DNA of 64,000 nucleotides, from NCBI GenBank assembly GCA_018969385.1, contig JAGWYL010000002.1, positions 289 through 64,288 of the forward strand. Direction: 5' to 3'. The number at the start of each line of letters is the position of its first letter. The first letter of the stretch is position 1. Source of the stretch: Patescibacteria group bacterium (GTDB taxonomy: Bacteria; Patescibacteriota; Minisyncoccia; Phycocordibacterales; Phycocordibacteraceae). Made by a program: the position numbers and the translations under genes. Shown here one piece after another: positions 2,065-49,796 of the stretch. The notes beneath the pieces were generated by a model. It had not been told where the DNA came from and did not search any database. It saw only the letters and a list, made by a program, of their open reading frames with translations.

Positions 2065-2092
2065 CTTGCTTCCGCCTGCCTAGGGTGAGGTG

Positions 2093-2150
2093 CTCACAGA
2101 AAGTCTGATTCGTAAGCGAAAGCGCTTAGCCTTCCGAACCGGACTTTCTG
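2093..2150. repeat. possible decayed remnant of the ~95-bp palindromic element family, just 3' of smc
   Basis: Nested inverted repeats (cagaaagtc...gactttctg; taagcg/cgctta) plus the motif gccttccgaaccgg shared with elements at 25919, 33207 and 49377. Confidence 0.2.
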
Positions 2151-2255
2151 CTCGCTCCGCGCAGTTATCCCCACCTCGGCTTTCGGGAGGGGAGTAACAT
2201 TTCTGTGAGGCAGGTGTATCTCCTGTGTACGCCATTACCCCTTCATGCCACCCTC

Positions 2256-3627: not shown

Positions 3628-3668
3628 GCAAGGCAGTATACCCTGTGAACGACACGTTCAGCATAGGA

Positions 3669-3763
3669 CTCGTTTCAAAACCGGCTCGGGGTGCGCGGTT
3701 TGAAAGCGAACTCCCCTTAGGCTTTCAAACCGCGCACCCGCTCGCCGGAGATTTTGAAACGAG
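3669..3763. repeat. palindromic MITE/REP-like element, copy E1, immediately 3' of RNase R
   Basis: Outer inverted repeat ctcgtttcaaaa / ttttgaaacgag; inner stem ccggctcggggtgcgcggtttgaaagc / gctttcaaaccgcgcacccgctcgccgg; 13-nt loop. About 80% identical to copies at 25919, 33207 and 49377. Confidence 0.8.
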
Positions 3764-3765
3764 CT

Positions 3766-5724
3766 CTATTCAGAGGCCGGCACGAAATCCAGCTCCTTCT
3801 CCGGCACGCGCGCAGCGGCAAGCGTGACGCGGATAGGGTCGCCGATGCGGTACTGCTTCTTCGTGCGCCGGCCTACGAGCCGGTATCCCTTCTCATCGTA
3901 ATCGAAATAGTCGTCGCCGAGGTCGCGGATGCGTATCATGCCGTCCGCATGCGTGGTCTGCTCCTCCACATACATGCCGCGGTCGGAGACGCCGGAAATG
4001 ACCGCGTCGAACGCATCGCCCACGCGTCCCGCGAGGTACTCCACCTGCTTCATCTTGATGGAGTCGCGCTCCGCTTCCGTCGCGGCAACTTCGCGTTCGG
4101 AACAATGGATGGCGAGCTGCTCGAAGCCTTCTACCTCGCGGTCGCTCATCGGTTCGCGTCCCGCGTGGTGTTTCAGCAAGCGGTGCACCACGAGGTCCGG
4201 ATACCGGCGGATGGGCGAGGTGAAATGCGTGTAGTGCGTGAAGGCGAGTCCGTAGTGGCCGATATTCTTAGTGGAGTACACGGCTTTCGCCATGGAACGC
4301 AGGGTCGCGGTCTTGATGAGGTATTCTTCCGGCTTTCCTTTCACCTTCTCGAGAAGCTCGTTGATGGCCACGCCCTTCACGTTGCCCGCATGGGTCTCAA
4401 GGTCGTAGCCGAGCACGCGCAGGAACAGGGAGAGATTCTCGATGCGGTCCGCGTCCGGCGCGTCGTGGATGCGGTAGAGGTAGCCGTGGCGCAGGTTCTT
4501 CGAAAGGTCGGCCAGGTGCTCGGCGACGGACTCGTTCGCGAGCAGCATGAAGTCTTCGATGAGCAGGTTCGTGTCCTTGCGCTCCTTGAGATGCACGGCC
4601 ACCGGCTTCCCCGCGTCATCGAGCTCGATCTTCACCTCCGCCGTGTCGAATTCGATAGCGCCGTTCGCCTGCCGCTTCTTCCGGAGCAGCTTCGCGAGCG
4701 TCCGCAGCGTGGAGAGTTCCGCGTGCAGGTCGCCCGCGCCCGCCTCAAGCGTCTTCTGGGCGTCTTCGTACGTGTAGCGGCGGTCGGAATGTATGACCGT
4801 CTCGCCGAACCACCGGTCAAGCACCTTCGCGTTCGCGTCGAGCGTGAACACCGCGGAAACGGCGAGACGGTCTTCGCCCTGCCGGAGCGAACAGAGGTCG
4901 TTCGAGAGCACTTCCGGAAGCATCGGGATGGTGCGGTCCACCAGGTAGACGGAGGTCGCGCGCTGGTACGCTTCCTTGTCGAGTTCGCCTCCTTGCTTCA
5001 CGAAGAACGATACGTCCGCGATGTGTATGCCCACTTCGAACGTGCCGTCGCCCTTGTCCTTGAAGGAGAGCGCATCGTCGAAATCTTTCGCGTCGGCGGG
5101 GTCGATGGTACAGGTCGGCACGTCGCGGAAATCGCGGCGCTCGCCGCTCGCCACGGCGCGTGCGGCTTCCTCGGCAATCATCGCGTGGCCTTCATGCTGC
5201 AGGACTTCCGCCGCCTTCACGACGGCGGGCGGGAAGGCCGCTTCGAATCCCTGTCCGAGCGCGAGCGCGCGCATCTCCGTCTCGTGAACGCCCGCGGGAC
5301 CGATGACCTGCTCGACGACGCCCCACGGAAAATCCGAACCCTCGTCCCAGCCTTTCATGCGGACGAGCACCTTGTAGCCGAGCGGACAGGGAAGCTCGCC
5401 GCGTATGTCGAGCGGCACGTACATCTTCTTGAGGTCGGGAATGAGGAGCGGGCCCTTGTCGTCCATCAGGGTGCCGACGAACGTTTCGCGCGCGCGGGCG
5501 ACGACGCGGACGACCTTCGCGGCCGCGCGCTTCTCACCGGTGCGGGCGTCCGTCTCGAAACCGTCGGGAGCGACCGTCACGACGTCATGATTGAGCGCAT
5601 GATTGAGCGACTCCTTCGGGATGATGAAATCCTCCTTCTCTTCGTCGTATGTGAAAAAGCCCGTGCCTTTGCGGGTTATGGTGATGACGCCTTCGTAGGT
5701 CTGCGCCTGCGATTCCTTGTCCAC
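3766..5724 (-). CDS. rnr: ribonuclease R (RNB-family 3'-5' exoribonuclease)
   Basis: N-terminal cold-shock/OB region, RNB catalytic motif IDPADAKDFDDALS, C-terminal S1-like domain. Confidence 0.9.
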   Translation of the reverse strand: MDKESQAQTYEGVITITRKGTGFFTYDEEKEDFIIPKESLNHALNHDVVTVAPDGFETDARTGEKRAAAKVVRVVARARETFVGTLMDDKGPLLIPDLKKMYVPLDIRGELPCPLGYKVLVRMKGWDEGSDFPWGVVEQVIGPAGVHETEMRALALGQGFEAAFPPAVVKAAEVLQHEGHAMIAEEAARAVASGERRDFRDVPTCTIDPADAKDFDDALSFKDKGDGTFEVGIHIADVSFFVKQGGELDKEAYQRATSVYLVDRTIPMLPEVLSNDLCSLRQGEDRLAVSAVFTLDANAKVLDRWFGETVIHSDRRYTYEDAQKTLEAGAGDLHAELSTLRTLAKLLRKKRQANGAIEFDTAEVKIELDDAGKPVAVHLKERKDTNLLIEDFMLLANESVAEHLADLSKNLRHGYLYRIHDAPDADRIENLSLFLRVLGYDLETHAGNVKGVAINELLEKVKGKPEEYLIKTATLRSMAKAVYSTKNIGHYGLAFTHYTHFTSPIRRYPDLVVHRLLKHHAGREPMSDREVEGFEQLAIHCSEREVAATEAERDSIKMKQVEYLAGRVGDAFDAVISGVSDRGMYVEEQTTHADGMIRIRDLGDDYFDYDEKGYRLVGRRTKKQYRIGDPIRVTLAAARVPEKELDFVPASE

Positions 5725-5838
5725 CTACGCACTCTAGCAGATTGGGCGCGATTCGCTACGCTTAAGGGTGCCGGTTCCACCCCCTTGGTTCCCGGCAGCT
5801 CAAGCCGCGAGCACTCCCCACAGTGGCGGCCTGACTTC

Positions 5839-5866
5839 GGGACTCGCTTGCGAGTCCCTCTTTTTG
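5839..5866 (+). terminator. plus-strand hairpin plus U-tract (intrinsic-terminator-like) in the rnr/rpsP divergent intergenic region
   Basis: gggactcgc-ttg-cgagtccc followed by tctttttgt. No plus-strand CDS precedes it, so it may be an sRNA or leader terminator. Confidence 0.35.
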
Positions 5867-6812: not shown

Positions 6813-7502
6813 ATGCCGCGATTTCATCTCATAACCCTTTTTCCTGAAGCGTGCGACGCGTACCTCTCCGCGTCCATCATCGGCCGCGCGCGGAAGGAAA
6901 AGAAGATTTCCGTAGACTATACGAACCCGCGCGATTTCGTAACGAACAGATGGGGCAAGGTGGACGAACGTCCGTACGGCGGCGGTCCCGGCATGGTGAT
7001 GCAAGCGCTGCCGATAGTGAAGGCGACCGAGAAGGCGCTCGGAAAGCGCGCGGGGAAGAAAGCCATCGTCTGGTTCCAGCCGGAAGCGAAGCAGTTCACG
7101 AACAAGGATGCGGACGCGCTCGGGAAGTACGACGAAGTCGCATTCGTCTGCGGACGCTATGAAGGCATAGACGAACGCGCGAAAAAGATCCTGAAGGCTT
7201 TCAAAACTAGGACATCCGATGTCCTAGTTTTGAAAGCCTACGCGGTCGGCGAAGCGGTCTATACCGGCGGGGAAGTGCCGGCGATGGCGATGATAGACGC
7301 CATCACCAGGCGGCTTCCGGGCGTGCTCGGCAAGGACGCGTCCGTCGAGGAGCGCCGCGTGTCCTCGCACGAGGTCTACACGCGGCCGGAGACCATCGAA
7401 TACAGGAAGAAGAGATACAAGGTCCCGCCGGTGCTGCGCACCGGCGACCACGCGAAGATGGAGGCGTGGAAACGTAAGAAGAACGGCGCGAAAAAGAGTT
7501 AG
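6813..7502 (+). CDS. trmD: tRNA (guanine37-N1)-methyltransferase TrmD carrying a 15-codon palindromic in-frame insertion
   Basis: TrmD motifs GRYEGIDER and TGGEVPAMAMIDAITRRLPGVLG. The segment KAFKTRTSDVLVLKA between them is encoded by the 45-bp palindrome. Confidence 0.9.
   Translation: MPRFHLITLFPEACDAYLSASIIGRARKEKKISVDYTNPRDFVTNRWGKVDERPYGGGPGMVMQALPIVKATEKALGKRAGKKAIVWFQPEAKQFTNKDADALGKYDEVAFVCGRYEGIDERAKKILKAFKTRTSDVLVLKAYAVGEAVYTGGEVPAMAMIDAITRRLPGVLGKDASVEERRVSSHEVYTRPETIEYRKKRYKVPPVLRTGDHAKMEAWKRKKNGAKKS
7196..7240. repeat. 45-bp perfect palindrome (21-bp arms, 3-nt centre) inside trmD, in frame
   Basis: aggctttcaaaactaggacat-ccg-atgtcctagttttgaaagcct. Core TAGGACATnnnATGTCCTA is shared with 14730 and 55283; outer GCTTTCAAAAC arms resemble the large element family. 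Confidence 0.85.
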
Positions 7503-7623
7503 ACGGCCGAGGTTCTCCGACCCGCCACGCGCTCGATCTGTCCCCGCGAAAGAGGGTCCGATTCTAGTCTTTCGCATGAACAGCTCTTCGCGCGTGGCGG
7601 GTCTTGAAACGGATTCTAGTATT

Positions 7624-8471: not shown

Positions 8472-10538
8472 ATGGAACTCATCCGTTCGTTCGCACGGAT
8501 TGGGAAGGATGATGCCGCTCTCGCCGGCGGGAAGGGCGCGTCCTTGGGAGAGATGACACGGGTCGGCATACCGGTGCCGCCCGGATTTGTCATCCTCGCG
8601 GGCGCGTTCGAGCGGTTCATCGAGGAGACGGATGTCAATGTGGAAATAGACGCGCTCCTTAGCACCGTGGATACGCGAGACATGCACACGGTGGAAGAAG
8701 CGTCCGGCAAGATTCAGTCGCTCATCCAGCAAGCGACGATGCCCGAAGACATCCGCACGGCAATCATGCAGAGCTTCACGGAGCTCGGCGCGGAATTCGT
8801 CGCGGTACGCTCAAGCGCGACCGCAGAGGACAGCGCGTCGGACGCGTGGGCCGGCCAGCTCGACACGTACCTCAACACCACGGAAGCGGATGTGGTCGCG
8901 AACGTGCAGCGGTGCTGGGCGTCCCTCTTCACGCCGCGCGCCATCTTCTATCGTTTCGAGAAGGGACTCGACGCGACGAAGATATCGGTGGCGGTCGTCG
9001 TGCAGAAGATGGTGCAGTCGGACGCAGCCGGCATCGCATTCTCCGTGCATCCGGTTACGGAGGATTACAACCAGCTCATCATCGAAGGCGGCTGGGGACT
9101 CGGCGAAGCAGTCGTTTCCGGACAGATAACGCCGGACTCGTACGTGGTCACGAAAGAACCGCGCGTCATCATCGACAAGAACATCTCCGAACAAGGTCGC
9201 GGACTGTTCCGCAAGGAAGGGGGCGGAAACGAATGGAAAGAGCTCGGCGCGAAAGGGAACGAGCAGGTGCTCTCTGACGAACAGATTCTCGCGCTTGCCG
9301 ATATCGTCATCGGCATCGAAGGGCACTACGGTTTCCCGGTGGATGTCGAATGGGCGATGGAGGACGGTACGTTCTACATAACGCAGAGCCGGCCCATCAC
9401 CACGCTCACCCCGCCGGTCGCGAAGGAGCCGCCCGATGGTGAAGAAGAACGCGCGAAAAGTGATTCTGAATCATCAACGGAGCGCGGAAACACAGCCGCA
9501 TACGTGAGAGAGATTAAAGCGCTCGATTGGTACCAGGACTGGTCCGGCCTCTATTCGCAGATAGAAGCATCGCTCGACGCCGACGCGTACTTCGGTCATT
9601 TTGAGAACGCGTGCGGCATGCAGTTCTCTCACGCGCTCGTGACTCTCATCGGGGAGACGGCTATCGGGTGGCTTCCGACGAGCGAAGGGGAAGCGATAGG
9701 TGCGCACCTCGTGCGCAAGCTTCAAGAGCCCGCGTTCTTGAAAGAGTGGACGGAGAATTTCCGCAACTATTTCGATCAGGTCAGCGCATTCCTGAAACTG
9801 CCTCGAGAAGAGCTCCTCGCCCGTTACCGGGAATATGCAGACTTATATCCGCAACTGGCTCCCTATACCATCGGCACGAAGCTTGCGTTCAATGCGCTCC
9901 CGCTCGGAAGCGAGCCTATAGCGGCGGAACTGGAGAAGGTCAGGAAATATACGGAACGAATCTATAAGGATTCGGCACTCATGACGAGCGAGCTTTGTCG
10001 CACCATAGCGGAGCGTAGCGGGTATCCGACGGGTGCGGTCCGTACGCTGACGGTCGACGAGATTTCACGATACGGGACGAACGGCACGCTTCCTTCGCAA
10101 TCTACGCTCGAAGCGCGCGCACTAGCCGGTGCCGTGTATCTCATGCCGGGCAAGAGCGTTCTTCTCTCTCGCGACGAAACTGAAGACATCCTCGCGTCAT
10201 TTACGTCCGGCGTGATGAAGGACGGCGCGCTTGTCGGGACGTCCGCGCATCCGGGTATCGTGCAGGGCACGTGCCGCATCGTCTTCGATTTTCGGGACGC
10301 GGTCATGCACGACGGCGACATCCTGGTCACGCCCATGACCAATCCGTACTTCGTCCCGCTCATGAAGAAAGCGGGCGCCATCGTCACGGACGGTGGCGGG
10401 ATGCTCTCGCACGCGGCAATCGTCGCGCGGGAACTCGGCAAGCCCTGCATTATCGGCACGAAGGTCGCGACGCAGGTACTCAAAGACGGCGACATGGTGG
10501 AAGTGGATGCGGAGAAGGGGGTCGTACGGAAGGTATGA
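8472..10538 (+). CDS. PEP-utilizing enzyme: PpsA/rifampin-phosphotransferase-like ATP-grasp + central domain + swivel phospho-His domain, no PEP/pyruvate-binding TIM barrel
   Basis: N-terminal GGKGASLGEMTRVGIPVPPGF (PPDK_N ATP-grasp); C-terminal GGMLSHAAIVARELGKPCIIGT (mobile His domain). 688 aa, so no room for a C-terminal PEP-binding domain. Confidence 0.85.
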   Translation: MELIRSFARIGKDDAALAGGKGASLGEMTRVGIPVPPGFVILAGAFERFIEETDVNVEIDALLSTVDTRDMHTVEEASGKIQSLIQQATMPEDIRTAIMQSFTELGAEFVAVRSSATAEDSASDAWAGQLDTYLNTTEADVVANVQRCWASLFTPRAIFYRFEKGLDATKISVAVVVQKMVQSDAAGIAFSVHPVTEDYNQLIIEGGWGLGEAVVSGQITPDSYVVTKEPRVIIDKNISEQGRGLFRKEGGGNEWKELGAKGNEQVLSDEQILALADIVIGIEGHYGFPVDVEWAMEDGTFYITQSRPITTLTPPVAKEPPDGEEERAKSDSESSTERGNTAAYVREIKALDWYQDWSGLYSQIEASLDADAYFGHFENACGMQFSHALVTLIGETAIGWLPTSEGEAIGAHLVRKLQEPAFLKEWTENFRNYFDQVSAFLKLPREELLARYREYADLYPQLAPYTIGTKLAFNALPLGSEPIAAELEKVRKYTERIYKDSALMTSELCRTIAERSGYPTGAVRTLTVDEISRYGTNGTLPSQSTLEARALAGAVYLMPGKSVLLSRDETEDILASFTSGVMKDGALVGTSAHPGIVQGTCRIVFDFRDAVMHDGDILVTPMTNPYFVPLMKKAGAIVTDGGGMLSHAAIVARELGKPCIIGTKVATQVLKDGDMVEVDAEKGVVRKV

Positions 10539-11986
10539 AGCTGCGCGAACGAGTGGAGGCGGTGCAGGACTGGGCAATCCTTAACAGCAGCGGAGTGCCG
10601 TACATACTAGGCGTCGCGCTCCGTCAATTCACAGAAGAAGTACGGAAGCGCTATCCCGACAATACCGTCATGCCGATGTGCGGTGCGCATTTCACGAAAG
10701 CGGGTTCGGTCATCCAGTTCCTTGCAGCCGCAGAACCGTATGGCCGCTCCTTCGAGAAGATAATCGCTGAGCCGGAGATGCTCGCTCGCGCGTATGCGGA
10801 CTTCGAAGCAGCCGAAGAATCGCTTAAGGCGTTTGCTGTGAAGTCGCAAGAGGACGAAGAGTATCGCGAGTTCCAGTACCCGGCATTCATACGGGCGTAT
10901 GATGCTATGTACGCTTCCGGACTACTGGTCGACGGCACGCTCATTTCCGGAGAGAAGGTATTCTCGTCCGTCTTGGAGCGGTACCCGGCTCATGCGCAGG
11001 CACTCCGCTCTTTCGCGCAATCCGAAGGGCTTACATTCAATGCACGATATCGCCGTGCTGAGTTGCGCTTCGCGAAAGAGATTGAAGAGGGAAGCGTGAG
11101 TCAAGCCGAAGCCGCCGTCTCGCTCGCACGGGACTTCTACTGGATGCACAACAATTACAAGAACGTTTCGGCGCTGCCCGTCTCATTCTTCGCAGGACAG
11201 CTTGAGGAAGCGCGCAAAGAGTCATCGGATAGCCGTGACACGGAGCTTGCGGAACTTGATACGTATGCGGAGCATCGCGCCGCCTTATGTGCGTCGCTCC
11301 GGCGCGAAGCTGCTCTCTCAGACGCAGACTACGAGACGCTCACGTGGTTCGGACGCATCACCTGGTGGGTCGATAGGCGCAAGGAGTGCAACCTCATCGC
11401 GAATCACCTCATAGGTAAGCATCTCACCCGTGTAGCGGCACAGCACGACATTCCTTACGAGGACGCCGCTTTTCTTCTCCCGTGGGAACTGGAAGCCGTT
11501 TTCAGCGGCAAGCGTACGATTGACTCCTTCAATCTGTCTGCGCGAAGAGAGGAGAGCATATACTTCCACGACGAAGACGGCGAAGGATTCTTCGTCACTG
11601 GAACAGAGTCCAAGGAGCTTTGGCGTAAGATATCGCCGCCTGTCTCTTCCGAGGATGCGGAAATCAAGGGCACGGTAGCCCAAAAGGGCGTGGCGCGCGG
11701 CATCGCGCGTATCGTGCCGGTCGCGCACCATCCAGGCACGTTCAATTCTGGCGATATCCTCGTCACCGGCATGACGCGGCCGGATTTCCTCGGGCTCATG
11801 AAGAAGGCCGCCGCTTTCGTCACGGACGAAGGCGGCATAACCTGCCACGCCGCCATCGTCGCCCGCGAGATGAAGAAGCCGTGCGTCATCGGGACGAAGG
11901 TCGCGACGCAAGTCCTGAAGGACGGTGACCTCGTGGAAGTGGATGCGGAGAAGGGAGCCGTGCGCATCATCGAGCGTGCGGCATAA
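10535..11986 (+). CDS. PEP-utilizing swivel-domain protein, paralog 2 (distinct N-terminal region, no ATP-grasp)
   Basis: ATGA overlap with the upstream stop; C-terminal GGITCHAAIVAREMKKPCVIGTKVATQVLKDGDLVEVDAEKG is nearly identical to genes 1 and 3. Confidence 0.75.
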   Translation: MKLRERVEAVQDWAILNSSGVPYILGVALRQFTEEVRKRYPDNTVMPMCGAHFTKAGSVIQFLAAAEPYGRSFEKIIAEPEMLARAYADFEAAEESLKAFAVKSQEDEEYREFQYPAFIRAYDAMYASGLLVDGTLISGEKVFSSVLERYPAHAQALRSFAQSEGLTFNARYRRAELRFAKEIEEGSVSQAEAAVSLARDFYWMHNNYKNVSALPVSFFAGQLEEARKESSDSRDTELAELDTYAEHRAALCASLRREAALSDADYETLTWFGRITWWVDRRKECNLIANHLIGKHLTRVAAQHDIPYEDAAFLLPWELEAVFSGKRTIDSFNLSARREESIYFHDEDGEGFFVTGTESKELWRKISPPVSSEDAEIKGTVAQKGVARGIARIVPVAHHPGTFNSGDILVTGMTRPDFLGLMKKAAAFVTDEGGITCHAAIVAREMKKPCVIGTKVATQVLKDGDLVEVDAEKGAVRIIERAA

Positions 11987-11993
11987 TAGCTGT

Positions 11994-13010
11994 ATGGAAC
12001 CCATGCATCTGACGAAAGAATACGAACGCGATATATCCGTCGTACTCGAGGAATGGTGGACACGCGGATTCGTCGACCTCATTCCTAAGCGATACGGACT
12101 TACGAATCCGGACCAGCCGTACGTCGTCTTCTATTCGACAGGAGAGAATCTCCAGATATGGGAGCATAAAGCGGCGTTCGATCGGTTCAAGGATTGGCTC
12201 CTTGGGAAGAACCAGGAAAGCCCGGCCTTCCTTGAATCCGTTATCGCCGCGTACCGTCCTGTCGCAGAGAAGGCAGCGGCTCATTTCGCGCGCGGTGCAG
12301 AAACCGAGCTGGACGCGGTCAAGGAGTACGCCGAACTCGCGCGTGAGGGCATCATGCTTTTCTCGATTTGGTATTACAGCGGGTATGACGAGCGGACACC
12401 GGAGGAGGTCCGGAAACTCGCGATAGCGCTTCGCGCGACTGACGAATTCTTCGCGCGGAACGATAAGCACATAAAGGACTCGCTCATCGCCCGCGGCGTT
12501 CCTGCGGAGTACGCCGGACTCGTCTTCCATGAAGAGTTCATTAGTCCGCCGCCGCGCGAGGTGCTTGCTACGCGCGCGGGCGGCATGGTGTCCATAGATG
12601 GCGATGTGCGTTTCAATATGACACTTACGGATTTTGCGGCTGCGCATCCCGGATATTCGTTCGAAGGACTGCACGCAGCAGGCGCTCCGGTGACGGAACT
12701 CAAGGGACAGGTGGCGCAGAAAGGGAAGGTGAGAGGTGCCGTGCGCATCGTAAAGAACAAGCGGCAGATGGAGAACGTCGCGGAAGGGGATATCCTCGTC
12801 TCGCCCATGACCACGCCTGATTTTCTTCCTGCGATGAAGAAAGCGGCGGCATTCGTGACCGATGAAGGCGGCATCATGTGCCACGCCGCCATCGTCGCGC
12901 GCGAGATGAAGAAGCCGTGCGTGATAGGGACGAAAATCGCTACGCAGGTGTTGAAAGACGGCGATCTCGTGGAAGTGGATGCGGAGAAGGGAATCGTGCG
13001 GAAGCTCTAG
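11994..13010 (+). CDS. PEP-utilizing swivel-domain protein, paralog 3 (distinct N-terminal region, no ATP-grasp)
   Basis: C-terminal GGIMCHAAIVAREMKKPCVIGTKIATQVLKDGDLVEVDAEKG; start at internal ATG (MEPMHL) 8 nt after the gene-2 stop. Confidence 0.75.
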   Translation: MEPMHLTKEYERDISVVLEEWWTRGFVDLIPKRYGLTNPDQPYVVFYSTGENLQIWEHKAAFDRFKDWLLGKNQESPAFLESVIAAYRPVAEKAAAHFARGAETELDAVKEYAELAREGIMLFSIWYYSGYDERTPEEVRKLAIALRATDEFFARNDKHIKDSLIARGVPAEYAGLVFHEEFISPPPREVLATRAGGMVSIDGDVRFNMTLTDFAAAHPGYSFEGLHAAGAPVTELKGQVAQKGKVRGAVRIVKNKRQMENVAEGDILVSPMTTPDFLPAMKKAAAFVTDEGGIMCHAAIVAREMKKPCVIGTKIATQVLKDGDLVEVDAEKGIVRKL

Positions 13011-14729: not shown

Positions 14730-14764
14730 CATAACGCTAGGACATCGGATGTCCTAGCGTTATG
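14730..14764. repeat. 35-bp palindrome with TAGGACAT-N3-ATGTCCTA core
   Basis: cataacgctaggacat-cgg-atgtcctagcgttatg; same 19-bp core as in trmD (7196) and at 55283. Confidence 0.7.
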
Positions 14765-19141: not shown

Positions 19142-22100
19142 ATGGCTTTCACACCGATGACCCCCCGCAAGCGCCTGCCCTCCGGCCCCGACTGGAACGC
19201 GCTCCGGCTCACGCTCGCGAGCCCGGAACGCATCCTCGCGTGGTCCCATGGCGAGGTGACGAAACCCGAGACCATCAACTACCGTACGCAGCGTTCGGAG
19301 AAGCACGGCCTCTTCGACGAGAAGATATTCGGTCCCGAGAAGGACTACGAATGCTACTGCGGCAAATACAAAGGCATCCGCTACAAAGGCATCGTCTGCG
19401 ACAAGTGCGGCGTGGAAATCACCCGTTCCATCGTGCGCCGCGAACGCATGGGCCACATCGAGCTCACGAGCCCGGTGGCGCACATCTGGTTCCTCCGCTC
19501 CGTGCCCTCCCGCATGGCGCTCGTCCTCGGGACGAGCGCGGCCGACCTCGAGAAGGTCGTGTACTTCGCGGGCTACATCGTGACGAAAGTGGACGAAGCG
19601 ATGAAGAAGCGCTTCCTTTCGGAACTCGAGAGCGAGTACAAGACGAAGTACAAGTCCGTGAACACGGACGCCGAGCGCGACGCGCTCAAGGAGAAGATGA
19701 CGCATGCGCGCCAGGAGATCGAGAACGTCGTGTCCGGCCGCGTCTTCGACGAGATAGAGTACCACCGGCACTCCGTGAAATACGGCTCGCTCTTCGAGGC
19801 GCGCACGGGCGCGGAAGCCATCTACGATATCTTCCGCACGCTCGACCTTTCCGCGCTGAAGGCGACGCTCGAAGCGCGCTATGAGCACGCGGGCGCCGCG
19901 GAACGCGAGAAGCTCGCGAAGCGCATCTCGCTCATCTCCGGCATGCTCGCCGCGAACGTCCGCCCCGAGTGGATGTTCCTCACGCGCATCCCGGTCATCC
20001 CGCCGGCGCTCCGGCCCATGGTCGCTCTTGAAGGCGGCCGCCACGCCACCTCCGACGTGAACGACCTCTACCGCCGCGTCATCAACCGCAATAACCGCTT
20101 GAAGAAGCTGAAGGACATCCACGCGCCGGAAGTGATTCTCAGGAACGAGAAGCGCATCCTCCAGGAAGCGGTGGACGCCTTGCTCGACAATTCCATCCGG
20201 AAGGGCGGCGCATCCGCCGGCGCCATGACGCCCGCGCAGCGCCGGCCTCTGAAGAGCCTTGCGGACTACCTGAAGGGCAAGCAGGGCTACTTCCGCCAGA
20301 ACCTGCTCGGCAAGCGCGTGGACTATTCTGGCCGTTCCGTCATCGTCGTCGGTCCGGACCTCGAGCTCGACGAGTGCGGTCTTCCGAAGCACATGGCGCT
20401 CGAGCTCTTCCGCCCGTTCGTCATCGCGGAACTGCTCGCGCGCGAATTCGCGTTCAACATCCGCGGCGCCGGCCGTCTCATCGAAGACGGCGTGCCTGAG
20501 GTGTGGGAAATCCTCGAAGAGGTCATCAAGGGCAAGCACGTGCTCCTCAACCGCGCGCCTACGCTTCACCGCCAGGGCATCCAGGCGTTCCGTCCGCGGC
20601 TCATCGAAGGCGACGCCATCCAGCTGCACCCCTTGGTGTGTCCGGCGTTCAACGCGGACTTCGACGGCGACCAGATGGCCGTGCACGTCCCGCTCTCCGA
20701 AGAGGCGCAGTGGGAGGCGGCGAACATCATGAGCGCGAACAAGAACATCCTGAAGCCGGGTTCCGGCGAGATGATCGTGCTCACCCAGAAGCCGCTCGAC
20801 ATCGTGCTCGGCTGCTACTGGCTCACGAAGGAGATTACGGGCGCGAAGGGCGAAGGCAACTACTTCCCGAATCCGAACGCGGCCATACTCGCGTACGAGT
20901 ACGCGGGCATCGACCTGCGCGCGAAAGTCTTCGTCATGCCGACCGCGGATAAGGCGAAGTACGCGCACTTCGAAGGGAAGCCCTTCGAGACGACGGTCGG
21001 CCGGCTCCTCTTCAACACCGTCCTCCCGTCGGACTATCCGTTCGTGAACGACGCCATCACGAAGAAGGTGCTCTCGAAGATCGTGAACGATTCCATCGAG
21101 CGCTACGGACTCGACCGCGTGCCTTCCATCGTGAACAAGGTGAAGCGCTTCGGCTTCGAGTATGCGACGCGTTCCGGCATCACGTGGGGCATCGACGACG
21201 TGTCGGTTCCCCCCGGCAAGGAAGCGGTCATCGGCGCGGCGCGCGGGAAAGTGCTCGCCATCGACGAAGACTTCAAGAACGGCCTCCTTTCGGCGGATGA
21301 GAAGCGCCGCATGGTCATCGAGATATGGCACGGCGCGCGCCAGGAGGTGGAGAAGCTCGTTGAAGAGACGCTCGACCCCTTGGGTTCCGTATCCGACATG
21401 GTGCGCTCGGGAGCCCGCGGTTCCGTGGGTAACCTCACGCAGATGGTGGGCATGAAGGGGCTCATCCAGTCCACCTCCGGCGACACCATCGAAGTGCCTA
21501 TCACGTCCTCCATGAGCGAGGGCTTGAATCCCATCGAGTACTTCATGTCGACGCACGGCTCCCGCAAGGGTCTCACGGACACGGCGCTCGGCACCGCGAA
21601 GGCGGGATACCTCACGCGCCGCCTCTTCGACGTCGCGCAGGATTCCATCATCACGGAGCAGGATTGCGCCACGAAGCGCGGCATCTCCATCAACCGCACG
21701 TCCGCATCGGGCATCCACATAAACTTCGCCGAAGCGGTGCGCGGGCGCTACCTCGCCGCGGACGCGGTCGCCAAGGACGGCGCCGTCGTCGCGAAGAAGG
21801 GAACGTACCTTGAGGCGGAAATCGCGAAGCAGCTCGCCGATTCGGATATCCAGACGGTCACCGTCCGCTCCCCGATGTCGTGCGAGACGCGCTTCGGCAT
21901 CTGCGCGCACTGCTACGGCATGGACCTGACGACGCAGCGGCTCGTCGACCTCGGCGAAGCCGTCGGCACCGTGGCCGCGCAGGCCATCGGCGAACCGGGC
22001 ACCCAGCTCACGATGCGTACCTTCCACGCGGGCGGTACGGCATCGGTGGGCGGCGACATCACGCAGGGTCTCCCGCGCGTGGAAGAAGTGTTCGAGAAGC

Positions 22101-22870
22101 GCTCGCCGAAGAACTCGGCGGTCGTCTCGAAGTCCGACGGCATCGTCGTCGAGATACGGGAGGAAAGCCGCGAGAAAGTCATCGTCGTCGCTCCTGCGGC
22201 GGGCCAGGGCAAGAAGGACGGCTCGTCGTTCGAGTATCTCGCGCACTATCCGCGCCAGTCGCTCGTGAAGCCGGGGCAGGAGGTCAAGAAGGGCCAGATA
22301 CTCACGGACGGTTCCGCCGACCTCGACGAGCTGTTCGAGCACGCCGGCCGCGCCGCGACGCAGGAGTACATCATCGCGGAAGCGAGCAAGATCTACGAGC
22401 TCCAGGGCGCATCCGTCTCGCGCAAGCACCTCGAGGTCATCGTGAAGCAGATGTTCTCCCGCGCGCGCATCACGGAGCCCGGAGACACGGACTACTCCGT
22501 CGGCGATGTCGTCGAGGACTGGGAATTCAATGATGCGGTGAAGGCGCTCGCGGATGCCGGCAAGATAGAACCGAAAGCGAAGTCCATCGTGCTCGGCATC
22601 AAGGAGTCCGCGCTTTCGCGCCGCTCCTTCCTCTCCGCGGCGTCCTTCGAACAGACGACGAAGATACTCATCAACGCCGCGCTCAAGGGAAGCGTGGACC
22701 GGCTGAAGGGACTCAAGGAGAACGTCATTCTGGGGCGGCTCATCCCCGCCGGCACCGGCTTCCCGGGAAGCCGGAAGTTCGCGGATGTCGCCGTCCTCGC
22801 GGAGAGGCGCCGCCGCGACCGCGAAGCATCCGAAGTGGCGCTGCCGGTCCAGAAGGCGCGGGCGGTTTAG
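19142..22870 (+). CDS. rpoC: DNA-directed RNA polymerase subunit beta-prime
   Basis: N-terminal zinc finger CYCGKYKG...CDKCG, catalytic NADFDGDQMAVH, C-terminal Zn site SCETRFGICAHCYG. Confidence 0.95.
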   Translation: MAFTPMTPRKRLPSGPDWNALRLTLASPERILAWSHGEVTKPETINYRTQRSEKHGLFDEKIFGPEKDYECYCGKYKGIRYKGIVCDKCGVEITRSIVRRERMGHIELTSPVAHIWFLRSVPSRMALVLGTSAADLEKVVYFAGYIVTKVDEAMKKRFLSELESEYKTKYKSVNTDAERDALKEKMTHARQEIENVVSGRVFDEIEYHRHSVKYGSLFEARTGAEAIYDIFRTLDLSALKATLEARYEHAGAAEREKLAKRISLISGMLAANVRPEWMFLTRIPVIPPALRPMVALEGGRHATSDVNDLYRRVINRNNRLKKLKDIHAPEVILRNEKRILQEAVDALLDNSIRKGGASAGAMTPAQRRPLKSLADYLKGKQGYFRQNLLGKRVDYSGRSVIVVGPDLELDECGLPKHMALELFRPFVIAELLAREFAFNIRGAGRLIEDGVPEVWEILEEVIKGKHVLLNRAPTLHRQGIQAFRPRLIEGDAIQLHPLVCPAFNADFDGDQMAVHVPLSEEAQWEAANIMSANKNILKPGSGEMIVLTQKPLDIVLGCYWLTKEITGAKGEGNYFPNPNAAILAYEYAGIDLRAKVFVMPTADKAKYAHFEGKPFETTVGRLLFNTVLPSDYPFVNDAITKKVLSKIVNDSIERYGLDRVPSIVNKVKRFGFEYATRSGITWGIDDVSVPPGKEAVIGAARGKVLAIDEDFKNGLLSADEKRRMVIEIWHGARQEVEKLVEETLDPLGSVSDMVRSGARGSVGNLTQMVGMKGLIQSTSGDTIEVPITSSMSEGLNPIEYFMSTHGSRKGLTDTALGTAKAGYLTRRLFDVAQDSIITEQDCATKRGISINRTSASGIHINFAEAVRGRYLAADAVAKDGAVVAKKGTYLEAEIAKQLADSDIQTVTVRSPMSCETRFGICAHCYGMDLTTQRLVDLGEAVGTVAAQAIGEPGTQLTMRTFHAGGTASVGGDITQGLPRVEEVFEKRSPKNSAVVSKSDGIVVEIREESREKVIVVAPAAGQGKKDGSSFEYLAHYPRQSLVKPGQEVKKGQILTDGSADLDELFEHAGRAATQEYIIAEASKIYELQGASVSRKHLEVIVKQMFSRARITEPGDTDYSVGDVVEDWEFNDAVKALADAGKIEPKAKSIVLGIKESALSRRSFLSAASFEQTTKILINAALKGSVDRLKGLKENVILGRLIPAGTGFPGSRKFADVAVLAERRRRDREASEVALPVQKARAV

Positions 22871-22875
22871 GGCGC

Positions 22876-22902
22876 GCGGCGGCCCCGCTGCGGGGCCGCC
22901 GC
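22876..22902 (+). terminator. GC-rich perfect 27-nt palindrome immediately after the rpoC stop (U-tract-less terminator candidate)
   Basis: gcggcggccccgc-t-gcggggccgccgc; no downstream U-run, as in I-shaped terminators of high-GC bacteria. Confidence 0.35.
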
Positions 22903-22938
22903 TTACGTGCCGGTCGAACGCGATAAAACTTCACACTA

Positions 22939-24636
22939 ATGGCAACCGACACCGTACAGAAGATAAAAGACAGGCTGTCGATTATCGATGTGGTGACGCC
23001 GTATGTGAAATTGACGAAAGCGGGACGGTACCATAAGGGACTCTCGCCGTTCAACAAGGAGAAGACGCCGTCGTTTTTCGTATCTCCTGACCGCGGTTCG
23101 TACTACTGCTTCTCAAGCGGGCAGGGAGGCGACATGTTCACGTTCATCGAGAAGATGGAGGGCGTTGATTTCAAGGGCGCGCTCGCGATTCTCGCGGAGA
23201 AGGCGGGCGTGGAGCTCGTCTACGAGCGCGGCGCCGACCGTTCGAAGAACGACCGGCTCTTCGAAGCCGTCGCGCGAGCCGAGCAATCCTTCGCGCGCGG
23301 CCTCACCCCGGAAAGCGGCGCATACGCGTACGCCCGCTCGCGCGGCCTCACGGACGCGACGATTCGCGCGTGGAATCTCGGCGTCGCGCCGGACGCCTGG
23401 CGCGCGCTCCTCGAAGAGGAGACGGGACTCGGGTTCTCGGTTCCGGAGCTGGTCGCCGCAGGCCTCGTGAAGGAAGCGGACGGCAAGCCGGGAACGTTCT
23501 ATGACCGCTTCCGGAACCGTCTCATGTTCCCGATACGGGATACGGCGGGACGCGCCGTCGCGTTCACGGGACGCGCGCTCGATGCGGGAAACGAAGCGAA
23601 GTACCTTAACAGTCCGGAGACGGACCTGTTCAAGAAATCGGAGGTGCTCTTCGGCATGCACGCGGCCAAGGATGCGATACGCACGCGCGGCTTCGCGCTC
23701 CTCGTCGAGGGTCAGATGGACCTCCTGCATGCGCACCAGGCGGGATTCGCGAACACCGTCGCGCTCTCCGGGACGGCGCTCTCCGAGCGGCACATAGCGC
23801 TCATCATGCGCTATAGCGAGAATCTCATGCTCGCGCTCGACGCGGACCGCGCGGGCATCACTGCAGCCGGCAAGAGTGCCGTGCTCGCGCTCCGGAAGGG
23901 CATGCGCGTGAAAGCGGTGCGCCTGCCGAAAGGGCAGGACCCCGCGGACGTCATCGGTAAGGACCCGGAAGATTTCGCGCGGCGCGTGCGGGACGCGAAG
24001 CCCATCGTCGAGTTCTACCTCGACACGCTCGTCGAGAGCGAAGGGGACCCGCACCGGCTCGTGCTCGCCGCGGAGCGGCTCGTGCTCCCTCTCGTGCGCG
24101 CGATGCAAAGCCCGATGGAGCGCGAACATTTCATCGGCGTCATCGCGCGGAGGCTCGGCATCGCGGAAACCGGCGTGCGCGGCGCGCTCGCCCGGCTTCC
24201 GGAAGATGCCGTGCCTATAGGACGAGCGCCGGAGGCGGCGGCGCTTCCGGAAGCGGACGAAGACCCCGCCGCGCTCATGCTCGCCGCCGCCGCGCGCGCA
24301 TATCCGGGTACCGCGCTTGAAAAGCACGTGAAAAGTGAGTACGCTCGTATTACCGGGATGCCGCTTGATGATGCGGCGAACATTCCCGAACGCTATCTCT
24401 TCGAGGCCGAGGCGGTCATCGGGGAGGCGCCGGAGCCCGCGAGCGCGGCTGACCTCGTGCTTCGGTTCGAGCGCGCCTACGTGCGGAGCCTCCTCAAGGC
24501 CGCGGGCAAGAGCATCGCGCTTTCGGAAGCGGCGGGCGACGCGAACGAGCTCGCCGCGGCGACCGCGCGGTGGAGCGAGCTCGCGAAACGCGTCAAGGAA
24601 ACGGAGGCGCAGCCGAGCCCGAAGCCGCATCACTAG
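22939..24636 (+). CDS. dnaG: DNA primase DnaG with degenerate zinc-ribbon ligands
   Basis: TOPRIM region [20 protein letters not shown]...EGQMDL present. N-terminal ZBD reads SPFN...CFSSGQGG instead of CPFH...CFGCG. Confidence 0.9.
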
Positions 24637-24655
24637 CAATTACTATCACACGCAT

Positions 24656-25915
24656 ATGGCAAAAGCCGCACGAACCAAAGCGAAGAGACGTCCGTCCGCA
24701 CGCAGCGCGAAGCCGGCTGCCCGGCGGAGCTCGCATAAGCCCGCTCCGAAGAAGTCGAAACGGCCGGTGAAAAAGACGAGAGCCGCCGCGAAGCCCAAGA
24801 AGGCGGCGCATCCCGCCGTGAAGCCTTCCGCGAAGAAGGCGCCGCGCGGCGGGGACCGCAACGCGCTCGCGGACGCGCTCATTGCGAAGGGGAAAGAGCG
24901 CGGCTACATCACCTATAACGAGATACTGAAGGAGTTCCCGACCATCGAGAACGACATCTCGTTCCTCGACACGCTCTACGAGCGTTTTTCCACGGCCGGC
25001 ATCGACATCCTCGAAGGCGGCATGCTCGAAGATAACGCCGACGAATACCTCGCGACCCGCAACATAAAGAGCCGCGAATCGTCCGGATACGATTCCATTC
25101 AGATCTATCTGCGCGAGATAGGCCAGTATCCGCTCCTCACCGCGGCGGAAGAGCGCGAGCTCGCACAGCGCATCGCGGCGGGCGACGACGAGGCGAGGAA
25201 CATCCTCGCGCGCTCGAACCTGCGCCTCGTGGTTTCCATAGCGAAGAAATACGTAGGCCGCTCTCCGGACCTCACGCTTCTCGACCTCATCCAGGAAGGG
25301 AACCTCGGCCTCTTCAAGGCGGTCGACAAGTTCGACTGGAAGAAGGGATACAAGTTTTCCACGTACGCGACGTGGTGGATACGCCAGGCCATCACCCGCG
25401 CGCTCGCGGACCAGTCCCGTACCATCCGCATCCCCGTGCACATGGTGGAGACCATCGCGAAGTACAAGCAGGTGTCCCGCCGCCTCGCGCAGGCCTTGGG
25501 CCGCGACCCGCAGCCCGAAGAGATAGCGGTGGAGATGGGCGTCGAGCCGGAGAAGATATACCAGATCGAGAAGATAAATCAGGACACGCTTTCGCTCGAG
25601 AATCCGGTCGGTTCGGACGACGACGAGAAGTCCACGCTCGGCGACTTCATCGCGGACGACAAGATTCCCTCGCCCGTGCAGGAATCCTCGGAGCGCATCC
25701 TCGGCGAACAGGTGCGCGACATCCTCGGCGACCTCTCGCCCAAGGAGCGCAAGATACTCGAGATGCGCCACGGGCTCCAAGACGGCGTCTACCACACGCT
25801 CGAAGAAGTGGGGAAGGAGTTCGGCGTGACTAGGGAGCGCATCCGGCAGATCGAAGCGAAGGCGCTCGAGAAGATACGCACGCACGACAAGTCCCGCCGG
25901 CTGAAGAGCTACTAG
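24656..25915 (+). CDS. rpoD: RNA polymerase sigma-70 factor, primary-like
   Basis: Lys/Ala-rich N-terminus; region 2 ([45 protein letters not shown]) and region 4 ([24 protein letters not shown]). Start moved to ATG at 24656. Confidence 0.9.
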
Positions 25916-25918
25916 AAC

Positions 25919-26005
25919 CCGTTTCAAAAACCGGCTCGGGGTGCACGGTTCGGAAGCGAACTCTCTTCAGGCTTCCGAACCGTGCACCCCGAGCCGGACG
26001 TTTTG
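25919..26005. repeat. palindromic MITE/REP-like element, copy E2, immediately 3' of rpoD and 5' of the hydrogenase-like cluster
   Basis: cgtttcaaaaaccggctcggggtgcacggttcggaagc - gaactctcttcag - gcttccgaaccgtgcaccccgagccgg - acgttttg; perfect 28-bp stem. Confidence 0.8.
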
Positions 26006-26062
26006 CACACGGTACGCCCTGGACATTCGCTTCGCGCAGGCATAGAGTACTCCGCATCCGTC

Positions 26063-26584: not shown

Positions 26585-26594
26585 CGATTCGCGT

Positions 26595-29527: not shown

Positions 29528-29530
29528 CCT

Positions 29531-30172: not shown

Positions 30173-30185
30173 TCGCGATTTCCGT

Positions 30186-31658: not shown

Positions 31659-31664
31659 TCCGCC

Positions 31665-33206: not shown

Positions 33207-33298
33207 GATTCCGGAACTCGCCGCGGGATGCGCGGTTCGGAAGCCTGAAGAGAGTTCGCTTCCGAACCGCGCATCCCTGGCCGAAGGCTTGAAATACG
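33207..33298. repeat. palindromic MITE/REP-like element, copy E3, immediately 3' of the hydrogenase-like cluster, inverted relative to E2
   Basis: Stem gggatgcgcggttcggaagc / gcttccgaaccgcgcatccc; loop ctgaagagagttc is the reverse complement of the E2 loop. Confidence 0.8.
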
Positions 33299-33312
33299 CT
33301 TCCGTCTGCTTA

Positions 33313-33356
33313 TAAAAAACTCGTGCCTCCTCCCGAACATTCGGAGAGGAGGCACG
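33313..33356 (-). terminator. intrinsic terminator for the minus-strand gene 33375..34058
   Basis: 11-bp stem cgtgcctcctc / gaggaggcacg with loop ccgaacattcgg, preceded on plus by aaaaaa (U-tract on the minus strand). Confidence 0.6.
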
Positions 33357-41337: not shown

Positions 41338-41547
41338 GCGCGTACGCTACCACGGCGCGCGCGATGCGGATTCTCGACACTCTGTATTTTGCGTGGTATA
41401 ATACACAGGAAAGTACGCCAGGACTCGTTTCAAGGCGTACGGCGAGCGACAGGTGTGCGATTCGGAAGCCTTGTATGGGCTCGCTTCCGCATCGCATGCC
41501 TGGAGCAAGCCGTTCTTGAGACGAGTCCAAGAAAATATGGGTAATGC

Positions 41548-47987: not shown

Positions 47988-49796
47988 TCACTCGCTCGCC
48001 GTGAGCATGTACCGCTTGATGTCTTCGAAGGTGCCGCCGACTTTCTTGCCGGGGTTGAGGATGTTCTCGGGATCGAACGCCTTCTTCACTTCTTCGAACA
48101 GCGCGACCATCTCCGCGCCGAAGAGCATGGGGAGGTACGGCGTGCGGATGATGCCGTCATTATGCTCGCCGGTCGTCGTGCCGCCGTACTTGATGACGAG
48201 CTCGTAGACTTTCGGCGCGAGTTCGAGGATGGTCTCGCGGGAAATGGGCTTCGAGAGGTCCATGAGCGGGATGATGTGGAAGTTCCCGTTGCCGATGTGG
48301 CCGGCGATGGTGTAGATGAAGCGGTCCTGATACTGCGCAAGGAGCGCGGATAGTTCCGGCAGGAATTTCGGGTATGACGCAGGCGGCACGACGAAGTCGT
48401 CGATGAAGGGGGAGGCGTAGTAGCCGTGGAGCGACTTGCGCAGGAGCGCGAAGCTCTCGCGCCGGACTATCCAATATTTCTCGCTCTCGGCCTCATTTTT
48501 CTCTATCTTCGTCTCGAGATGGAACTCGGCGAGCGCGTCCTGCGCCGCCTTCGCCTTCGCGTCCGCTTCTTCGATGGTGTTCTCCGCGAACTCGGCCATG
48601 AGGATGAGCTTCGGCACGCCGCCTACGAGCACCGTTTCCACTTCCGGCAAGAACTCGATGCCGAGGTGCACGGCCTTCGCGAGCCCCATCTGCTTGAGGA
48701 GGTCGAAGAGGAACCGCGTCGCGAACGTGAAGGTCTTGTCGTCGTAGCTTTCGAACGATTCGGGATTGAGCGGCAGCACCTTCGCGACGATGTCCGGCAA
48801 CGGCGCGAGGTCATGGAGGAAGATGACGAGCATGGCGCGGTGCGGCTTGTCCTTCACGAGCCCGAGCCGCGCGCGCGTCCACAGCGCGAGCGTGCCCTGG
48901 CTGCCGCAGATGAGCTTCGCGAGGTTCACGCCGCCGTCCGGCGTGCGCACGTTCCAGAGCGCGTAGCCCGCGGAGTTCTTCGAAACCTCCGGCTTCTTTT
49001 CGGCGATAAGGTCGGCGTTCTTCGTGATGACCTCATCGACCGTGCGATAGATGGAACCTTCGAGCGTCTCGAGTTTCTTCTTCTCGTCGAGCTCGGCGCT
49101 CGTGAGCGCTTTGAATGTCGCCTTCGAGCCGTCCGAAAGCACGACCTCCATCTCCTCTATATAGTCTTCCGTCTTGCCGTACTCGAGCGTGCGCTCGCCG
49201 CCGGAATTATTCGCGACGATGCCGCCCATGGCGCAGAGCTCGCGGCTTGCGGGGTAGGAGGGGAGTATGAGGTCCTGCTTGAGGGTCTCCTTCTCGAAGT
49301 CGCGGTAGAAGACGCCGGGTTCCGTGATGGCGTATCCGGCGACATGCGCGCTTTGCAGTCCGTTCGCGTTCAAAGCGGAACTCGTTTCAATACCGGCTCG
49401 CGGTGCATGGTTCGGAAGAAGCCCATTCAAGTCTTCCGAACCATGCACTCCCTCGCCGGAAGTTTTGAAATGAGTTCCGTCGGCAGCGCCGACCTCGCCC
49501 ATGTGATTCATATATCTGGTGAATGAGATGACGACGCCGTCCGTGAGCGGGCCGCCGGACATGTCCGTGCCGGCCGAGCGCGCGGCGAGCGCTACCTGCG
49601 CGCCGCCCTCCCGGGCGGCGCGCACCACCCTTACCGCCGCCGCCACGTCATCCGCATCCTTCGGAAATACCACCAGCTTCGGCATCCGCATGAAAAGGGA
49701 CGTGTCCCTGCTCGCCTTCGCGAGGTCCTCCGGCGCGTCCGACACGTCGCCTTTCACTACGTCTGTCAATCTCGATTTCAGTTCTTGTACATCCAT
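47988..49796 (-). CDS. FAD-linked oxidase (GlcD / D-lactate dehydrogenase family) carrying an in-frame 34-codon palindromic-element insertion
   Basis: FAD-binding PCMH region (FPKDADDVAAAVRVV...GTDMSGG) and C-terminal FAD-oxidase domain (HIGNGNFHI). Continuous 602-aa ORF spans element E4. Confidence 0.85.
   Translation of the reverse strand: MDVQELKSRLTDVVKGDVSDAPEDLAKASRDTSLFMRMPKLVVFPKDADDVAAAVRVVRAAREGGAQVALAARSAGTDMSGGPLTDGVVISFTRYMNHMGEVGAADGTHFKTSGEGVHGSEDLNGLLPNHAPRAGIETSSALNANGLQSAHVAGYAITEPGVFYRDFEKETLKQDLILPSYPASRELCAMGGIVANNSGGERTLEYGKTEDYIEEMEVVLSDGSKATFKALTSAELDEKKKLETLEGSIYRTVDEVITKNADLIAEKKPEVSKNSAGYALWNVRTPDGGVNLAKLICGSQGTLALWTRARLGLVKDKPHRAMLVIFLHDLAPLPDIVAKVLPLNPESFESYDDKTFTFATRFLFDLLKQMGLAKAVHLGIEFLPEVETVLVGGVPKLILMAEFAENTIEEADAKAKAAQDALAEFHLETKIEKNEAESEKYWIVRRESFALLRKSLHGYYASPFIDDFVVPPASYPKFLPELSALLAQYQDRFIYTIAGHIGNGNFHIIPLMDLSKPISRETILELAPKVYELVIKYGGTTTGEHNDGIIRTPYLPMLFGAEMVALFEEVKKAFDPENILNPGKKVGGTFEDIKRYMLTASE
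49377..49478. repeat. palindromic MITE/REP-like element, copy E4, inserted in frame within the FAD-linked oxidase CDS
   Basis: gaactcgtttcaataccggctcgcggtgcatggttcggaaga...tcttccgaaccatgcactccctcgccggaagttttgaaatgagttc. 102 nt; the minus strand reads GTHFKTSGEGVHGSEDLNGLLPNHAPRAGIETSS with no stop. Confidence 0.8.

Follow-up and report, generated by a model that had tools for sequence, protein, structure and literature searches.

Directly behind rnr in the DNA analysed here lies a palindrome of about 100 nt, and the question it raises is whether this is one copy of a mobile repeat family or a hairpin that serves its gene, and how such hairpins came to lie where they do. An earlier note on this DNA had described it as one of four palindromic MITE/REP-like copies in 64 kb. 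The window, by which we mean the whole stretch of 64,000 nt, has a GC content of 63.5%, and its FAD oxidase and TrmD are 100% identical to NCBI proteins listed as 'MAG: Patescibacteria group bacterium'; the nearest relatives of these two proteins, at 64-81% identity, are from Parcubacteria, Minisyncoccota, Paceibacterota and Kaiserbacteria. Judging from these protein matches, the host of the elements is a Patescibacteria (Parcubacteria-like) MAG.

Copies in the window

When the window was searched with the core pattern GGTTYGRAAG-N14-15-CTTYCRAACC, exactly four sites were found (E1-E4), compared to not even a single match in 100 dinucleotide-preserving shuffles. The four copies that had been claimed at 3669-3763, 25919-26005, 33207-33298 and 49377-49478 are all present there, and the claimed identity of roughly 80% agrees with the 76-87% measured pairwise among E1-E4, the copies overall being 13-30% diverged and 97-112 nt long. 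The earlier note had held that the family would fall if the copies did not align once indels were handled properly, and they still align. Its count of four is right for these copies and too low for the window, since a looser search brought up a fifth full and more diverged copy (E5, 41419-41530) and there is a probable sixth (E6, 7500-7620). An nhmmer profile built from E1-E5 recovered the five copies with E values of 1e-21 to 1e-29 (1e-24 to 1e-29 for E1-E4) and gave no other convincing match in the window beyond the weak one of a relic at 2086-2166 (E 0.005). In 8 kb of further sequence past the window end it found nothing. There are thus five or six copies in 72 kb (the window and the 8 kb beyond), and their flanks are unrelated, which supports the earlier description of an interspersed palindromic MITE/REP-like family. 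The features are as follows.

3664..3769, plus strand (orientation by the loop GAACTCCCCTTAG): E1, full element; nhmmer E 2.8e-29, dG -66/-67 kcal/mol, z -10.7/-10.0
25913..26012, plus strand: E2, full element with a perfect 27-bp inner stem; nhmmer profile and folding
33207..33303, minus strand: E3, element with the loop of E2 in the opposite orientation; nhmmer profile and folding
49375..49480, plus strand: E4, full element in frame inside the FAD-linked oxidase gene; nhmmer profile
41419..41530, minus strand: E5, diverged full element; nhmmer E 5.5e-21, dG -72.4 on the plus strand versus -58.5 on the minus strand
7500..7620, strand not given: E6, tentative diverged member; dG -55/-61 kcal/mol, z -3.8/-6.0
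2086..2166, strand not given: candidate decayed relic between the SMC and glutamate dehydrogenase genes; nhmmer E 0.005, z -2.8
47988..49796, minus strand: host gene of E4, FAD-linked oxidase (FAD_binding_4 and FAD-oxidase_C) of 602 aa; Pfam domains

That the elements are a chance similarity or an assembly artefact is practically out of the question: the shuffle control refutes chance, and the base-identical E2-E5 in the independent assembly GCA_028865695.1 refute the artefact. E6 is a long hairpin that begins at the stop codon TAG of trmD. Of 24 positions at its right end, 21 agree with the left end of E2, the flanking TACTAG among them; the interior of E6 (stem GACCCGCCACGCGC) is unlike that of the other copies and its E value against the profile is only about 0.5. 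E6 is probably a diverged sixth member of the family. The sequence at 2086-2166 holds CTTCCGAACCGG inside a weak hairpin and is a possible decayed relic of the element. A site at 13742 (CGAACTCGTTTGAA) was rejected on inspection and is not an element.

Genes around the copies

E1 occupies the whole spacer 3' of rnr, which encodes an RNB domain protein (3766-5724, minus strand), and the rnr stop TAG (3766-3768) lies within the terminal stem of E1. E2 begins at the rpoD stop TAG (25913-25915) and is followed by a promoter-like site at 26020-26048 and by the ATG at 26063 of a NuoB-like gene, the first of a group-4 hydrogenase-like operon. E3, which is without about 12 nt (TTTCAA-ACCGG) of its left outer repeat, comes directly after the TAA stop (33204-33206) of a fused 30k/49k group-4 hydrogenase-like subunit, and a canonical bidirectional terminator lies downstream of it at 33326-33358. 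The earlier placement of E1-E3 next to the stops of rnr, rpoD and the hydrogenase-like subunit holds in that all three abut a stop codon; its reading of E1 as beginning after the rnr stop has to be turned around, because rnr is on the minus strand and E1 follows the stop at its right-hand end. Left out of that placement were the in-frame intragenic setting of E4 and the leader copy E5. Upstream of E5 is the best sigma-70-like promoter site of the window (TCGACA-17-TGGTATAAT, 41374-41402) and downstream of it is the ATG at 41581 of a 214-aa gene, so that E5 lies in a 5' leader. With E4 inside a gene and E5 in a leader, the elements need not follow a stop codon.

TAG is the commonest stop codon of the window (21 of 50) despite a GC content of 63.5%. 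The TAG stops at the elements were considered as a signal in their own right and rejected, since with TAG ending 21 of 50 genes three out of three has p ~0.07. The longest NuoB-like ORF opens at a GTG at 25982, inside E2, and the start annotated in the second assembly is the ATG at 26063; with such a GTG, the element can yield spurious N-terminal extensions in gene calls, here one of 25982-26062.

Anatomy, folding and covariation

The earlier note had proposed folding each copy, and when this was done every one of E1-E5 formed one long end-to-end hairpin with -53 to -72 kcal/mol and z of -5.5 to -10.7 on either strand. The earlier description of the outer inverted repeat and inner stem holds, the inner stem measuring 19-27 bp. 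The most conserved part is the 14-nt inverted termini, (TAG/CGG)-RAC-YCG-TTTCAA, also expressed as (TAG/CGG)RACYCGTTTCAA, and the interior varies. This 14-nt repeat, GGAACTCGTTTCAA or TAGRACYCGTTTCAA, is found at both ends of E1, E4 and E5 and at one end of E2, E3 and E6. The variant TAG-RAC-YCG-TTTCAA is that of E1, E2 and E6, the variant CGG-AAC-TCG-TTTCAA that of E3 and E4, and E5 has CAGGACTCG at one end and TGGGACTCG at the other. Inward of the termini there is a short CCGG stem, then an asymmetric conserved internal loop (CTCG on both arms in E1, E4 and E5) and then a GC-rich stem of 19-20 bp. The apical loop is of two types, GAACTCYCYTYAG in E1, E2 and E3 and AGCCCATTCAAG in E4 and E5, with the loop of E5 being that of E4 in reverse orientation. 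The loop length of 13 nt given earlier is correct for E1, E2 and E3, and that of E4 is 12 nt. It is this 12-13-nt loop that lends each copy its orientation.

When the 20-bp core stem was compared across the copies, 9 of the 20 pairs had been changed on both sides in a compensatory manner and 94.9% of the cells were paired. None of 500 shuffles reached this level, and every slid control gave zero double changes. These compensatory changes indicate that it is the hairpin itself that is maintained and not merely its sequence. E5 is strongly diverged in sequence, yet it is paired throughout. Of all copies it alone bears on which strand or molecule folds: five G.U pairs form on its plus (transcribed) strand while the minus strand forms none, a difference of 14 kcal/mol that is a single case. 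Identity with a known RNA was rejected: neither a tRNA nor a tmRNA explanation applies to the elements, and no Rfam 15 family matched any element at its gathering score or even at E <= 1.

E4 as an in-frame insertion

Between its terminal inverted repeats (49377-49478) E4 is 102 nt long, which is 34 codons encoding GTHFKTSGEGVHGSEDLNGLLPNHAPRAGIETSS, and it divides FAD_binding_4 into two matched stretches. The host FAD oxidase has 602 aa compared to about 554 aa that are typical for its orthologues, whose identity to it is 64-70% by BLAST and 69-76% in MAFFT alignments. Alignment with solved relatives puts some 47 additional residues between residues 101 and 108 of the glycolate oxidase 9qgz chain, and across 50 aligned orthologues the place is occupied by a variable loop that is 0-17 residues longer. 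Nothing similar to the 34 E4-encoded residues was found at the site in these 50 orthologues, and therefore the sequence was inserted. The reading frame stays open across E4 and the protein is identical in the second assembly. In an AlphaFold2 model, residues 109-148 have pLDDT <50 and form a coil between two strands while the rest of the fold is well predicted; the E4 insert is thus predicted to be a disordered surface loop of the enzyme. That this copy survived is explained by its having landed in frame, free of stops and in a loop that tolerates indels. Unrelated flanks and varied contexts speak for a mobile sequence that has entered sites unrelated to one another, and by these alignments one insertion, that of E4, is proven, into what they mark as a variable surface loop of a conserved enzyme.

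The terminator-like core

On either strand the inner GC-rich hairpin stands between TTTCAAAA on its 5' side and TTTTGAAA on its 3' side. A core made up of an A-tract, a GC hairpin and a T-tract looks like a bidirectional intrinsic terminator, and such a putative role is plausible. The tails that follow the inner hairpin on the transcribed strand are these.

E1, minus strand (rnr): TTTTGAAAC, T-run intact
E2, plus strand (rpoD): ACGTTTTG, T-run intact
E3, plus strand (hydrogenase-like operon): AGGCTTG, T-run broken, canonical terminator follows
E4, minus strand (inside ORF): TATTG, T-run broken
E5, plus strand (5' leader): TTCTTG, T-run broken

A consensus terminator scan flagged none of the copies, the reason being that their loop of 12-13 nt exceeds 8 nt and that the T-run is just 4-5 T long. 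E2 is the only hairpin between rpoD and the next promoter-like site, and in a syntenic relative it is a canonical terminator with a U-tract that stands after rpoD. As read from five copies, the pattern of the tails suggests that E1 and E2 were recruited as terminators and that the U-tract decayed in places where termination would be harmful. The core would then be a portable bidirectional intrinsic terminator or 3' stabiliser behind rnr and rpoD, and where termination would hurt, at E4 and E5, the T-tract of the sense strand would have decayed. Translating ribosomes suppress terminator hairpins inside ORFs, so the intragenic hairpin of E4 does not contradict the idea of a terminator.

Distribution and comparison of strains

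Over much of the window a second assembly, GCA_028865695.1, is available, and its identity there is 99.3-99.9%. When E2, E3, E4 and E5, the four copies that this comparison covers, were examined in it, they were base-for-base identical, and there was no presence/absence polymorphism between the two near-identical strains and no empty site. The earlier suggestion that the family is active or recently active is not borne out: copies that are 13-30% diverged, together with the identity of E2-E5 in the second strain, leave it unsupported. In the part of the window from 21663 to 35023 the differences between the two assemblies are clustered at 21.7-22.9, 24.2-25.4 and 34.3-34.9 kb with near-identity between these clusters, which looks like recombination patches between strains.

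When the core pattern was scanned against GTDB species representatives, a collection without the source genome, 47 loci were found, all of them unrelated hairpins or chance matches, and none has the flanking GTGCRY stem or the termini of the element. A stricter core pattern gave one match in JGI metagenome contigs, due to chance, and two scans of IMG/VR viral contigs gave zero and 22 matches, the 22 being chance as well. About 65 kb from three relatives, whose FAD oxidase is 69-75% identical and one of which is syntenic, contained no element and only short terminators. At the protein level, a concatenated six-frame peptide query of the element returned nothing, a weak result as the host protein itself was not returned either, and when 1.84 billion representative proteins were searched with a profile of the most common stop-free frame, only three weak and unrelated repeat proteins came up. 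With GTDB, JGI, IMG/VR and the relatives giving no copies, the family looks private to its lineage; in pattern-based scans of this kind, which miss diverged relatives, the element family looks lineage-specific. No transposase was found by Pfam in the window or the 8 kb beyond (72 kb in total), nor by the terminal-repeat pattern in the window, and Y1_Tnp had no match among the window ORFs scanned or annotated. Jatrophihabitans sp. RYN_133, an actinobacterial MAG, has an unrelated hairpin family, AATAGT-GGTTCGGAAGC-loop-GCTTCCGAACC-ACTATT, on at least 4 contigs and in a relative, and the stem GGTTCGGAAGC is probably common to it and the present element by chance.

How the elements may have spread

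With a probability of roughly 0.7 the elements are palindromic mobile DNA that is non-autonomous and specific to the lineage, in the broad sense a MITE, with a terminator-like core that was probably recruited at rnr and rpoD. By analogy, the best reading is that its anatomy is closest to that of REPINs and its behaviour closest to that of the Rickettsia palindromic elements. The folded single strand, either as DNA in transposition or as RNA, would be the form under selection, and a transposase encoded elsewhere in the genome would move the element. In a compact genome that is poor in TA and CTAG, survival would be limited to copies that came to lie at the ends of genes, in leaders or in protein loops that tolerate them.

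The mode of movement can be read from the termini in more than one way. IS630 targets CTAG and duplicates TA, and the elements could be cut-and-paste MITEs of an IS630/Tc1-mariner-like (or IS5-like) insertion sequence whose DDE transposase would read the 14-nt repeats, insert at TA, preferably at CTAG, and duplicate the TA, the interior of the hairpin being incidental. The conserved terminal inverted repeats are consistent with this, and so is the TA that flanks both ends of E1, E2 and E6, given that TA makes up 2.2% of the dinucleotides of the window; one end each of E2 and E6 lies in CTAG, which is six-fold under-represented (36 observed versus 215 expected), and the coincidence of three TAG stops with element tips fits a TA followed by the first G of the element. 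This reading stands well below even odds, because the flanking TA is absent at E3, E4 and E5, where the tips are CGG or CAG, because the whole interior is kept paired by compensatory changes, for which a transposase that recognises the terminal repeats alone has no need, and because no parental insertion sequence is seen in the 72 kb. TA is self-complementary and may itself belong to the repeat; no clear target-site duplication was found among E1-E6, and since E3-E5 read CGG or CAG where the others read TAG, the TAG is more simply a part of the inverted repeat than a duplication. Movement of a single-stranded DNA hairpin by a domesticated HUH/Y1 (RAYT-like) transposase, without target duplication, as for REPINs, is possible at well below even odds. 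Being about 100 nt long, with ends that are conserved and a spacer that varies while its pairing is compensated, the hairpin has the anatomy of a REPIN (PMC3116915), the conserved asymmetric internal loop gives it polarity, three of the six copies are without a target-site duplication and most copies are extragenic and near gene 3' ends. What speaks against it is that the GTAG/CGTC head of the known super-families (PMC3733652) is in no copy, that the ends are not themselves short REP palindromes, that there is no Y1 transposase among the window ORFs scanned or annotated and that one copy is intragenic. GTAG, CTAC and CGTC are absent from every copy, and E2, E5 and E6 have one GACG each, at unrelated positions.

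It may also be asked whether the hairpins are functional RNA of the host, such as terminators, mRNA 3' stabilisers or RNase III sites, that spread by function and not as selfish DNA. Three to four copies directly behind stop codons, the A-tract and T-tract that flank the hairpin, the restriction of the five G.U pairs of E5 to the transcribed strand and the place of E2 at the site of a relative's canonical rpoD terminator all point this way, and we still consider it unlikely as the explanation of the family. A terminator would do harm at E4, within an ORF, and at E5, in a 5' leader, the canonical terminator after E3 makes E3 redundant, other genes of the window have short canonical terminators with T-runs of 5-6, and function leaves the spread of the same 100 nt to unrelated loci unexplained. 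An extension of the mobile reading, speculative and rather improbable, is that of a mobile hairpin of one CPR lineage that insulates itself by terminal TAG stops, a bidirectional terminator core and a stop-free frame. A TAG at each of its ends (CTA on the other strand) may act as the stop codon of a host gene, and it is not the same frame that is stop-free in every copy. Landing at TA/TAG may place it at gene ends or in protein loops without killing a host that has little spare DNA, and it may supply terminators (rnr, rpoD, trmD) and new peptide loops. Two short sequences described below, the 21-nt CTAGGAC palindrome of trmD and the GGACTCG...CGAGTCC terminator at 5839-5858, may be minimal or collapsed derivatives of it.

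Other palindromes and features of the window

The trmD ORF (6813-7502, plus strand) contains a perfect palindrome of 45 nt at 7195-7239. Its central 21 nt (CTAGGACATCCGATGTCCTAG, 7207-7227) coincide with an in-frame insertion of 7 codons that ten CPR orthologues are without, and the same 21-mer with one central base different occurs in an intergenic palindrome at 14737-14757 (14730-14764), for which the chance expectation is 0.01. An independent Logan contig ends inside the trmD palindrome, and the half-site CTAGGAC of this palindrome resembles the tips of the main element (TAGGACTCG). Of the 36 CTAG sites in the window, 7 lie in palindromes or at element tips. A canonical terminator at 5839-5858 reads GGGACTCG-cttg-CGAGTCCC followed by TCTTTTTG, and its stem is identical to what E1 and E5 have at their outermost tips (GGACTCG...CGAGTCC), which may be coincidence or may mean that the terminator is a collapsed element. 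From the start of rnr to rpsP there is a spacer of 190 nt (5740-5860) that ends in this terminator and could therefore encode a small RNA; it had no match in Rfam even at E <= 1. At 8472-13010 there are three consecutive and partly overlapping ORFs, each ending in a PEP-utilizers mobile domain, with PPDK_N in the first only, which may be a tandem duplication or frameshifted copies.

Meaning and comparison with known systems

CPR/Patescibacteria have small, dense genomes in which mobile DNA is usually said to be scarce. A full-text literature search gave no paper describing MITE/REP-type repeats in them. If the family is abundant genome-wide, even genomes as streamlined as these would be shown to keep palindromic mobile repeats. 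The family would then also be a second and independent case in the manner of Rickettsia of a selfish repeat adding a peptide loop to a conserved enzyme, and it would let one test in a natural setting whether hairpins, once inserted, are recruited as terminators. Such repeats can also break assemblies and mislead gene calling, as with the GTG at 25982.

The Rickettsia palindromic elements (RPEs) are palindromic repeats in a reduced genome that lie between genes and also in frame in conserved metabolic genes, where they add a peptide loop that the protein fold tolerates (PMC10969869). The likeness is in the palindromes of about 100-150 bp, the reduced genome and the presence of both intergenic and in-frame copies, and E4 behaves likewise, being inserted in frame with the ORF of its host gene open. 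The hosts of RPEs are Alphaproteobacteria whereas the present family is in CPR, an unrelated phylum; nearly half of the RPEs are in frame compared to one case among five or six copies here, and no conserved element peptide was found elsewhere. As the host is a Patescibacteria MAG, common descent with the RPE families is unlikely and the two are likened by behaviour and not by sequence. REPINs are long imperfect hairpins with two inverted conserved ends and a compensated spacer, for which roles in termination and mRNA stability have been proposed (PMC3116915), and most REPs are defined by GTAG/CGTC heads (PMC3733652). The present family shares with REPINs and REP/BIMEs the inverted conserved ends, the paired spacer with compensatory changes and the mostly extragenic location, and differs in having no GTAG/CGTC tag, no ends that are short REP palindromes, no RAYT in 72 kb and one intragenic copy.

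Correia elements duplicate TA. Like the present family, MITEs of the Correia/NEMIS, ERIC and SPRITE type are 100-150 bp long with terminal inverted repeats, are co-transcribed with their neighbours and form stable hairpins; here TA flanks only half the copies, and similarity in sequence is neither to be expected nor was it seen to any Rfam family. SPRITE resembles a rho-independent terminator (PMC10969869). As for MITEs in general, which are small (about 50-500 bp) and without coding capacity of their own, the elements are 97-112 nt long and have terminal inverted repeats of 14 nt. With bidirectional intrinsic terminators they have in common a GC hairpin with a 5' A-tract and a 3' T-tract that is readable from both strands, but their stem of 19-27 bp and loop of 12-13 nt are far longer than those of the canonical terminators of this genome, their T-run has only 4-5 T and the unit is a repeated, inserted sequence. 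Palindromic interspersed mobile repeats of bacteria are a known class, of which the present family is a new lineage-specific example.
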